64,000 nt of DNA from Negaprion brevirostris (lineage: Eukaryota). A program made the position numbers and the translations under genes. Location: assembly GCA_030324005.1 (NCBI GenBank), contig JARDVH010000132.1:78977973-79041972 (forward strand), written 5' to 3'. The notes under the pieces are model-generated. The model ran no database searches. It saw nothing but the letters and a program-made list of their open reading frames with translations, and had not been told where the DNA came from. Shown here piece by piece: positions 11,850 through 55,780 of this stretch. Each line of letters opens with the position of its first letter. The stretch's first letter is position 1.

Positions 11850-11945
11850 GAACATCCATCTGTGGGTCTGCTGGTGGATAAGCTGCTGGAAAATAGCATC
11901 CATGTCATTTTTGCAGTTCAGGGATCATGCATCAGCTGGTACAGG
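11850..11945 (+). CDS. ITGB8: ITGB8 exon (approx. human exon 7), betaI domain: EHPSVGLLVDKLLENSIHVIFAVQGSCISWYR
   Basis: ttctaacag acceptor, gtaag donor, 96 nt, phase 0/0. Similar to human EHPSLGQLSEKLIDNNINVIFAVQGKQFHWYK (recalled). Missed by the ORF track. Confidence 0.95.
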
Positions 11946-12420
11946 GTAAGATCTATGCTGTTAATATCAGACTGAATAAGACACAGTGTTGGGCTTCTTG
12001 TGAAAAATGAATTTGGGTGCATGTGTTTAATTTATATTTAATCACCTCTCTGAAATATTATTAAAATCTAATCATGTTTCAACTAACAATAATTGAAAGT
12101 AAATTCCAGTACTCAATAAAATGGTTGCATTTTGCTGTGTGTTATCTTTGACCAATCAGATTATTTATGAGATAACATTTGAATGTTACCGTTGCTTTCA
12201 AAATATCCGTAGTGCTTTAAGTATGCTCAAGCAAACAATAAGTTTCACTTGGATAGATTGGATTTCAACCAATGCATCAGTTGATGTTAGTGCTTCCAAG
12301 GCATAAACTTACAGTTTGAGAAGCTTTCTTTTAAGATTTATTTTCATAATAATTGCCCTTTCTAAGAAAACTTGTTTAAAAACAAAATTTAATTGAAACA
12401 TCTCTTTTATTTTCTTAAAG

Positions 12421-12510
12421 GATCTTCTTCCATTGATGCCAGGTGCAGCTGCAAGGCAGTTAAATGCAGAATTATCCAATCTCTCTGAACTAGTGGAAGG
12501 TGCCTACAAG
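12421..12510 (+). CDS. ITGB8: ITGB8 exon (approx. exon 8), betaI beta6-alpha7: DLLPLMPGAAARQLNAELSNLSELVEGAYK
   Basis: tttcttaaag acceptor, gtatag donor, 90 nt, phase 0/0. Confidence 0.95.
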
Positions 12511-24777: not shown

Positions 24778-24912
24778 ACGCTGCTTTCTGAAGTAGAACT
24801 GCAGGTGGACAATCTTATCAATGGGGTCTATGTGAACATTACTGCAGTCTGTCCTGATGGGGCTGAACATCCAGGCCACAATAAATGCAAAAATGTGAAA
24901 GCCAGTGATACA
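24778..24912 (+). CDS. ITGB8: ITGB8 exon (approx. exon 9), hybrid domain: TLLSEVELQVDNLINGVYVNITAVCPDG...KCKNVKASDT
   Basis: Poly-T tract plus aatacag acceptor, gtaag donor, 135 nt, phase 0/0. Confidence 0.96.
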
Positions 24913-31926: not shown

Positions 31927-32335
31927 GTTTCTTTTAATATAACAGTTGGAATGACAGATTGTTATGAGGGAGACAAGCACATCATTTTAAAACCCGTTGG
32001 GTATAATGAAACAATTGTTGTTTCTGTAAGCAGCACTTGTGCTTGTCAGTGCAAAGGACCTAAAGGTTATACTGCTGGAAGATGCTTCAATAAAGAGCTT
32101 GACCCAGATTGTAGACTTTGCCAGTGTGAAGACAGAGTTACTAATTCTTCCTGCAAAGAACAATGTCTCATTGAAAGCTGTCGGCAGTACAAAGAACAGC
32201 CTCTATGCAGTAATCGAGGGATCTGCAACTGTGGGAAATGCTTATGCTACCAGACCAAGCTAGGTAGAGTGTTTGGAAAATATTGCGAGCTGGATAACTT
32301 TTCTTGTCCTTATCACCAAGGCCATCTATGTGCTG
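31927..32335 (+). CDS. ITGB8: ITGB8 exon (approx. exon 10), hybrid end and I-EGF1/2: VSFNITVGMTDC...FSCPYHQGHLCA(G)
   Basis: gtttag acceptor, gtaag donor, 409 nt, phase 0/1. Contains Cys-rich integrin EGF repeats (ORF 31951..32355). Confidence 0.97.
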
Positions 32336-47082: not shown

Positions 47083-47416
47083 ATATCCACAGTGATGATT
47101 ACAAATGAAAATAGTTGCTTCTGTTAATGCTTCATATAAGAACAACACGATTTTACCATAACTCCAATAAATAAAACTCCCAAGTGTCTATTTTGCAAGA
47201 CTTGTTTTCATAGTGTTTTCATACAGTCTGCTGAGAAATGTAACCACATCTGAAACCTGACATTCTCATTAAATCAGACAAAGTCTGTGAGGTGACTTGT
47301 GAAATAAACTAATTCCGATGAATTGGTGTTTTTGATCACAGCCAACAAGCTAAGCTGTGGCATGCCTATTTAAGTAGTGTTCTGGAACTTTAATATATGT
47401 CTCTTAACTGTTTCAG

Positions 47417-47639
47417 GCAATGGTGAGTGTAAAGGAGGAGAATGTCAATGCTTCCCTGGCTGGGAAGGTGAAAACTGTAACTGTTCATCGTCCCACATGT
47501 CCTGCAAGACAGGGCATGGCCAAATCTGCAGTGGAAGAGGGGCATGTATCTGTGGTAGATGTCATTGCGCTGAATCCAGAGCGTCTGGTCGTTTGTGTGA
47601 GGTTTGCCCTACATGTGAAAACTCATGTGAAAACAGTTG
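47417..47639 (+). CDS. ITGB8: ITGB8 exon (approx. exon 11), I-EGF3/4: (G)NGECKGGECQCFPGWEGENC...CEVCPTCENSCENS(W)
   Basis: tttcag acceptor, gtatgc donor, 223 nt, phase 1/2. Confidence 0.97.
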
Positions 47640-49706: not shown

Positions 49707-49804
49707 GAAGTGTGTGCAGTGCCATGTGTTAAACTACGGGGCAGTGTCTCCTGCCAATTGCACCATTCCATGTTCACAAATGGTGCTAGTGGACAAGCTT
49801 TCAG
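49707..49804 (+). CDS. ITGB8: ITGB8 exon (approx. exon 12), beta-tail first half: (W)KCVQCHVLNYGAVSPANCTIPCSQMVLVDKLS(E)
   Basis: ttctag acceptor, gtacct donor, 98 nt, phase 2/1. CxxC...CxxxC pattern of the beta-tail domain. Confidence 0.92.
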
Positions 49805-51715: not shown

Positions 51716-52411
51716 AGTCACAGATTAATTGAAGCTTACAGCATGGAAATAGGCCCTTCAGCCCAAATTGTCCATGCCGCCCTTTTTCTAAAACCCCTAA
51801 GCTAATCCCAATTGCCCGCATTTGGCCCATATCCCTTTCTACCTATCTTACTCATGTAATTGTCTAAATGCTTTTTAAAAGACAAAATTGTACCCGCCTC
51901 TACTACTACCTCTGGCAACTTGTTCCAGACACTCACCNNNNNNNNNNNNNNNNNNNNNNNNNNNNNNNNNNNNNNNNNNNNNNNNNNNNNNNNNNNNNNN
52001 NNNNNNNNNNNNNNNNNNNNNNNNNNNNNNNNNNNNNTTCAGTGCACACACAAGCTTTGTGCTTCTCCTCTTCCAAACTGCTCTGAAAGACTAAGGAACT
52101 TGAATGGCCAAAAGCAGCAATCATGCACTATTATCGAATTGAGAAGGCCACATTTGTGCTTGTTTCGTCTTTTTTTAAATACATATTTACCATAGGCAAA
52201 TAAGCTGCTCAAGAATTTGAGTGCAAATTCCTTTTGAGAATAGATGCAACTTTCAGTATAATTTCTTTGTAAATGTGATCCAGGAAAATGTTACATTGTT
52301 GATTTCATTAGTTTTATCTTTAATTAAAACTGGTGGGAATTCTTCAAAGGTGGGATAGCATTGAAATATTTGTTTTGTTGAACATGTCATTAGTTTATAT
52401 TTTGTTATCAG

Positions 52412-52531
52412 AATCCGATGAAGAAAAAGCACAATCCTGTGTCTTTCAAGCACAAAATAAATGCTTATATAAATTCAAGATGGTAGCAACTGAGACTGAA
52501 AAAGAATCTCTTTATATATTGAGAAACTCAG
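52412..52531 (+). CDS. ITGB8: Additional ITGB8 exon, beta-tail second half: (E)SDEEKAQSCVFQAQNKCLYKFKMVATETEKESLYILRNS(E)
   Basis: tttgttatcag acceptor, consensus CAG|gtaagt donor, 120 nt, phase 1/1, open in the required frame. C-x7-C-x3-F pattern as in beta1/3/6 tail domains. Confidence 0.88.
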
Positions 52532-55363: not shown

Positions 55364-55530
55364 AATACAATTCTATCCACAATACCCTTGCAATGTTTCT
55401 TGTCTTCTCTGCTGGTACGGTTATTACTGGATTAATCGTTGTGATGGTCATCAGGCAAATAATGATGCACTGGAATTCAAATGAACCAAGTCATCCTGGA
55501 AGCAATTGCAAAATATCTCCTCCACAAAAG
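55364..55530 (+). CDS. ITGB8: ITGB8 TM and proximal cytoplasmic exon: (E)YNSIHNTLAMFLVFSAGTVITGLIVVMVIRQIMMHWNSN...PPQK
   Basis: ttttgcag acceptor, gtagaa donor, 167 nt, phase 1/0. Hydrophobic helix followed by beta8-specific IRQ...WNSN. Confidence 0.94.
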
Positions 55531-55663
55531 GTAGAACTAATAGGTTATAGATTTACAAGTGACCAGAAAGTTTAAGAATGTTTAGGTTATTTATGGTAAT
55601 TCATCATGAGGGAAGTATATTGGGAAAAACTACTGAAGGTACAAATTTCTTTTCTTTTTCAAG

Positions 55664-55780
55664 GGAAAAACATCCTTACCTATAGTTAGTTCAAAAACTA
55701 TAGCACACAGGCGTGACAAACCGGAGGAGCATCATGTGTACATCAACAAAATGCAAGTAATTCAGAAGCTTGACTTGTAA
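55664..55780 (+). CDS. ITGB8: ITGB8 last coding exon: GKTSLPIVSSKTIAHRRDKPEEHHVYINKMQVIQKLDL*
   Basis: Pyrimidine tract plus aag acceptor after a 133-nt intron. RRDKPEE matches human RREKPEE. TAA at 55778-55780. Confidence 0.93.
   Translation, partial: GKTSLPIVSSKTIAHRRDKPEEHHVYINKMQVIQKLDL

Follow-up and report, generated by a model that had tools for sequence, protein, structure and literature searches.

The integrin beta-8 gene (ITGB8) of the shark Negaprion brevirostris carries a 120-nt exon for the second half of the beta-tail domain, and human beta-8 lacks the 40 residues that this exon supplies. We propose that the exon is an ancestral, spliced part of the gene that has been lost whole at least three times, and that these losses likely came about through relaxed constraint on the leg of the receptor. 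AlphaVbeta8 is an activator of latent TGF-beta and a drug target.

The window, by which we mean the whole stretch of 64,000 nt that was analysed, comes from N. brevirostris assembly GCA_030324005.1 (contig JARDVH010000132.1, positions 78,977,973-79,041,972, forward). The 5' part of ITGB8 falls beyond it, and the following features lie within it:

11850..12510, + strand, two upstream ITGB8 exons for the end of betaI (about 11850-11945 and 12421-12510)
24778..24912, + strand, upstream ITGB8 hybrid-domain exon, edges set by eye from splice-site context
31927..32335, + strand, exon for the hybrid end and I-EGF1-3, 409 nt
47417..47639, + strand, I-EGF3/4 exon with the C608 equivalent, 223 nt
49707..49804, + strand, preceding beta-tail exon, 98 nt, phase 2-1, kept in short forms
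52412..52531, + strand, ITGB8 exon for the second half of the beta-tail, 120 nt, phase 1-1
55364..55530, + strand, transmembrane exon, 167 nt, phase 1-0
55531..55663, + strand, last intron, 133 nt, which when read through yields a shorter cytoplasmic tail as an alternative
55664..55780, + strand, last coding exon up to the stop codon, encoding a beta-8-type cytoplasmic tail without NPxY

Exon 52412-52531 sits between a pyrimidine-rich acceptor ending in ttatcag and a gtaagt donor. Its exact coordinates, phase, strong splice sites (AG/GT) and open frame agree with the preliminary description, as do the positions of the exons on either side (49707-49804 and 55364-55530). The six exons from 31927 to 55780 join into a single open frame, free of internal stops, that is 378 codons long when the exon is included and 338 when it is left out. 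Alignment to beta3 places the exon at residues ~648-686, where it carries the equivalents of C655 and C663 and covers the CD-loop region around S674. The preceding exon encodes the helix with the C614/C617/C631/C635 equivalents, and the first full codon of the transmembrane exon, at the beta3 C687 position, is Tyr.

A profile made from 84 non-beta-8 tails and run on the window's 2191 frames returned only two matches, the frame of exon 52412-52531 (E 1.7e-4) and that of the preceding tail exon (E 4.1e-4). At 16.5 bits, the 39-residue exon peptide outscored all 1000 of its shuffles, the best of which reached 10.2. The bare peptide had no match among PDB sequences, and homology required the flanks or a profile; taken whole, the shark tail can be aligned over its full length with beta3 601-698 (E 2.6e-6) and also with beta6, in agreement with the two alignments proposed at first reading. 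Against Pfam Integrin_B_tail (PF07965), the exon matches profile positions 41-81 and the previous exon positions 6-38, each below the curated cut-off; Pfam does not list the tail domain for the whole catshark beta-8 protein, and the gar beta-8 tail scores 32.9 against a cut-off of 33.6. By whole-domain homology, the shark tail is a member of PF07965. A search with the gar tail stretch matched beta-8 entries only, besides one chance match at E 0.56. The exon residues are predicted, on grounds of homology, to form beta-sheet strands of the tail domain, whose fold is a helix with a four-stranded sheet. An AlphaFold model places three strands within them at pLDDT about 40, both structure models (n=2) being of low confidence (mean pLDDT 45 and 50) and the fold search spanning the head only. 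Conservation in other chondrichthyans, which had been anticipated, is evident in 11/11 cartilaginous-fish orthologues compared, with 25-35 of the 39 residues identical.

Judged from its sequence, the gene is ITGB8, as originally assigned. Exon 31927-32335 finds human beta-8 as its best PDB match (E 5e-34 vs 1e-22 for beta-6) and is 93% identical to catshark beta-8, and all exons found in the window map onto catshark and chimaera beta-8. The clade test rests on shark orthologues, the window's own joined protein standing outside the tree, and places them inside the beta-8 clade (0.997 FastTree, 100 SH-aLRT). The ADMIDAS Asp-Asp pair of the betaI MIDAS motif is absent from 13/13 cartilaginous beta-8 proteins, which have AN or TN, and DD is present in 4/4 other beta chains; this result comes from the cartilaginous orthologues, the exon concerned lying outside the window. 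NPxY/F occurs in 0/13 cartilaginous beta-8 proteins, and the window's last exon likewise lacks the talin-binding NPxY. Human beta-8 (PDB 6UJA chain B) is the best PDB match (E 4e-245), falls in one clade with the shark proteins and shares both absences, but it has fewer I-EGF1 cysteines than the shark, and its alignment is split in two by a gap at the exon, where beta-6 and beta-3 align through. The earlier claim that mammalian beta-8 has no such exon is confirmed, and the gap is exon-sized. Shark beta-8 does not have the short mammal-like tail, its C635-C687 spacing being 51 vs 12-14 in mammals; the short tail is a derived trait and no mark of the beta-8 orthology group. In its accessible text, one source describes the human beta-8 tail as smaller and incompletely predicted and notes the missing I-EGF1 disulfide without, in that part, an evolutionary account (PMC10187181); another, likewise in the part accessible, gives human ITGB8 13 introns vs 14 in ITGB3/5/6 (PMC4030831).

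The exon is included in RNA-like contigs of 4/4 runs. These are the runs, of 24 listed, whose contigs we read; they stem from organisms similar to N. brevirostris, and their RNA nature is presumed, none being recorded as RNA. In runs X1 and X4 a contig passes from 52408-52528 directly into the sequence from 55361 on. X5 and X7 each have a contig that links the piece 47416-47638 to 55361 with 216 letters between, which is the spacer predicted with both tail exons, as opposed to 96 with the exon skipped. A number of intron bins have no depth in any of the four runs. It had been suggested that skipping might yield both long and mammal-like isoforms, and the frame is indeed kept without the exon, but no skipping was seen in sharks: 0/28 annotated cartilaginous-fish proteins reaching the region skip the exon, and the skip junction 49804/55364 does not appear among the junctions listed (15 of 377) in the four runs, contigs being prone to lose rare forms. 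In the cyprinids Megalobrama and Chanodichthys the annotation has skip models next to long ones (P0555 and P0558 vs P0559 and P0553), and Sinocyclocheilus has an annotated skip model as well (P0481).

Two other transcript forms came to light. When the last intron is read through, an alternative, short cytoplasmic tail results that ends in VELIGYRFTSDQKV and is almost identical to those annotated in rays and in catshark isoform X2. Contigs of two runs cross this intron unspliced (X5 record 20, X7 record 22), and the form is possibly a conserved retained-intron isoform. Ten skate-like Logan proteins (P0165-P0174) stop just past the exon matching 31927-32335, reading into the intron; this recurrent, truncated form is possibly secreted, or merely unspliced.

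A tail-family search of the N. brevirostris genome gave ten matches. Three shark paralogues, one of them beta-5-like by tblastn, carry at the corresponding site an exon of 120 nt, likewise phase 1-1; the ITGB8 exon is therefore ancestral. With its symmetric phase and its inclusion in RNA-like contigs, this bears out the initial reading of the exon as symmetric, ancestral and spliced. An insertion specific to sharks was rejected, the exon being found also in paralogues and in ray-finned fishes. In two beta-1-like paralogues one phase 2-1 exon holds the whole tail; these two genes (L003 and L004, G000:C132) lie ~250 kb apart on opposite strands of the same contig as ITGB8. The likeness to the beta-3/beta-6 tail thus extends from end-to-end alignment to the two-exon layout of the three paralogues, but cartilaginous beta-8 differs in having Tyr or Phe at the C687 position (13/13) and C663 in only 8/13, so that one disulfide is probably missing there.

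Tail length was gauged by the C635-to-C687 spacing in 209 beta-8 proteins, hand-picked from about 560. Left out before the count were P0484 (a fused model), P0441, P0442, duplicate isoforms, partial proteins and P0462, an aberrant model where other Takifugu models have the exon. Long forms have a spacing of 45-57; in each of the three short groups it drops to 11-14, and mostly to 12, which argues that one and the same piece is gone in every case. The exon is kept in 13/13 cartilaginous and 102/126 ray-finned proteins, the latter comprising 5/5 from bichir, sturgeon, gar and bowfin, 2/2 from soles and 95/97 from other teleosts; Danionella and several carps are long, and zebrafish is absent among the matches. 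The short form is found in 70/70 lobe-finned proteins (coelacanth and lungfish 2/2, amphibians 23/23, reptiles and birds 25/25, mammals 20/20), in 16/16 from atherinomorphs of all three orders (medaka and killifish relatives), in 6/6 from turbot, flounder, dab, plaice and halibut, and in two singletons among the 97 other teleosts. A mammal-specific loss was accordingly rejected. The preliminary description had placed the loss after the split of cartilaginous from bony fishes; mammals do lack the exon, but most ray-finned fishes keep it and the loss is not tied to that split. Among non-beta-8 integrins a short tail occurs in 0/65 measurable representatives (65 measured of 142 tried; P0180, P0181, P0183, P0186 and rows with failed anchors left out). 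The sturgeon beta-6 model P0180, from an unverified contig and outside the 65, is without the same stretch.

In trees built from the sequence upstream of the tail only, the short groups fall at three places among long relatives. The starred branches force at least three changes, and a quick tree, with medaka unresolved, counts 4. A single origin of the short form is rejected (p-AU 5.9e-6, for a group defined by the trait after the first tree). Taken with the long outgroups and the paralogue evidence, the short forms are therefore losses. The annotated proteins, in which deletion and permanent skipping read alike, indicate that the exon was lost at least three times.

Gene models bear on how these losses are to be dated. 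A gar UniRef model (P0126) drops exactly these 40 residues, which the gar RefSeq model (P0070) has, and in Liparis annotation has dropped the exon (P0487) in a species that possesses it. Models can thus omit the exon where it is present, which makes coelacanth (3 models) and lungfish (1 model) the weak link. The tetrapod short form is supported by the human PDB sequence, by Logan protein P0064 and by the intron counts of PMC4030831, and that of atherinomorphs by Logan protein P0548. Atherinomorphs have moreover lost C608 and C687 in 16/16 proteins, as well as C614, and have Cys in place of W612; the loss of C608 and C687 is no product of mis-annotation and points to a real loss of the exon. 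W612G is common to the six flatfish proteins.

Provided that the gene models of coelacanth and lungfish are correct, the loss seen in tetrapods took place on the lobe-finned stem. The loss could instead belong to the tetrapod stem, with coelacanth, lungfish or both still carrying an exon that homology-guided annotation has missed. The gar omission is of just this kind, and the clusters hold no transcript-derived coelacanth or lungfish protein; yet the three coelacanth models (two RefSeq versions among them) agree with the lungfish RefSeq model, and RefSeq did find the exon in gar, bichir and sharks, and we regard a later loss as quite improbable. Only slightly better in our judgement, and still improbable, is the view that the exon was an ancestral cassette, with both isoforms co-existing until lineages fixed one or the other; a silent copy might then persist in short lineages. 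The cyprinid skip models and the preserved frame speak for such a history, but the absence of skipping from cartilaginous-fish proteins and the inclusion in all four runs speak against it, and a shark skip form would be expected to strand C608, the C687 position there being Tyr or Phe. We retain the reading of an ancestral exon that was lost repeatedly.

Cysteines trace the consequences for the leg. We take the beta3 tail disulfides to include 608-655 and 663-687. A 601-604 disulfide in beta3 is given in the accessible part of PMC2733745. All eight tail cysteines (608, 614, 617, 631, 635, 655, 663, 687) are present in 5/5 non-teleost ray-finned proteins and in 95/97 teleosts, and the two within the exon are invariant in 95/95 long teleost proteins, so the exon is not free to drift there, which speaks for real constraint wherever it is retained. 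The shark does not have the full set, with Tyr at C687 in the window. C663 is retained in sharks and replaced in rays and chimaera; that of shark beta-8 is probably unpaired. A further Cys close to the betaI end is present in sharks and absent from rays. Where the exon has gone, C608 is kept in 70/70 and C687 in 67/70 lobe-finned proteins, and both in 6/6 from flatfish, which suggests that these two now pair.

The erosion extends beyond the exon. The hybrid end and I-EGF1 hold 9 cysteines in 12/13 cartilaginous proteins and 10 in one, the set of 9 being that of the beta-6, beta-5 and beta-1 sequences compared; the number is 7 in 19/20 mammals, 5 in 93/97 teleosts, 3 in coelacanth and 5 in lungfish. 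By these counts, the beta-8 knee too decays stepwise in bony vertebrates. In the tail helix that remains, most frogs have lost C617 and C631 (C617 survives in 4/23 amphibians), and in medaka the helix itself is incomplete; these changes are further erosion after exon loss.

We propose that beta-8 of the jawed-vertebrate ancestor was already atypical, without the ADMIDAS Asp-Asp pair and NPxY, and that its lower leg would have mattered less: having left talin-driven switching from the bent state, the receptor would have been under relaxed leg constraint. A phase 1-1 exon whose length is a multiple of three may be skipped or deleted with the frame intact. Holding one cysteine of each of two disulfides, it would on its loss free C608 and C687, which probably bond with each other in lobe-finned vertebrates and flatfish and were both erased in atherinomorphs. 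Low-level skipping, as annotated in cyprinids, may lead to fixation. The ADMIDAS aspartates and NPxY are already absent in the shark, and exon loss is therefore most likely a result of relaxed constraint and not the cause of the atypical behaviour; the shark receptor probably has a head and a cytoplasmic tail of the beta-8 type on a leg of full length. According to the accessible text of PMC6889490, only N9 is invariant at these positions among fish including elephant shark, and the head of alphaVbeta8 does not explain the rarity of its bent state.

The opposite direction of cause deserves weighing. Exon loss could itself keep alphaVbeta8 extended, long-tailed fish beta-8 bending through contacts of the tail with betaI and the hybrid domain, and it could have been favoured for keeping a TGF-beta activator upright; the losses would stand as described and only their cause and effect would differ. 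The exon spans the region of beta3 S674 that touches betaI V332, and disulfides placed there block activation, as reported in the accessible part of PMC2733745. Three convergent losses can signal selection, and sharks retain the full I-EGF1 cysteine set as well. The same text, however, states that this contact adds little or nothing in beta3 integrins and that alphaVbeta3 is affected in a minor way, and alphaIIbbeta3 not at all, when the beta3 CD loop is removed, with R633 lying in the kept exon (PMC2733745). The three losing groups have no obvious ecology in common, and the atypical head and cytoplasmic features are older than every loss. We find an adaptive origin unlikely. In its strongest version, the human tail would be a one-exon half-domain deletion, re-closed by a bond between the orphaned cysteines, arisen at least three times and preventing alphaVbeta8 from bending; we hold this to be doubtful to a like degree. 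Were it true, the TGF-beta-activating integrin of most fish would be able to bend and would be regulated by its conformation, and the human receptor would regain bending once the one exon was put back. Relaxed constraint remains our preferred account.

Lineage-specific loss of symmetric, frame-preserving exons is a well-known general mode of gene evolution. The beta-8 case differs in that a single paralogue lost the same exon three times or more, that half a folded domain went with it, and that the partner cysteines changed to match. The long sequences were already known, and RefSeq lists them as 'integrin beta-8'; what is apparently new is their reading at exon level and the recurrence of the loss. 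A literature search largely confined to freely accessible papers found nothing on the exon or its losses, and a published alignment could already show the fish tail; the accessible parts of PMC8104898, PMC12383024 and PMC11531391 added nothing on the question.

Collectively, our data trace the small tail of alphaVbeta8 to one missing exon and make long-tailed beta-8 the norm in fish. They also counsel caution in comparing medaka or killifish with fish of the carp family, whose beta-8 is structurally different. Sole vs turbot, mullet or cichlid vs medaka, gar vs coelacanth and the cyprinid isoforms form matched natural pairs, and these natural long and short versions allow a direct test of why the human receptor stays unbent.
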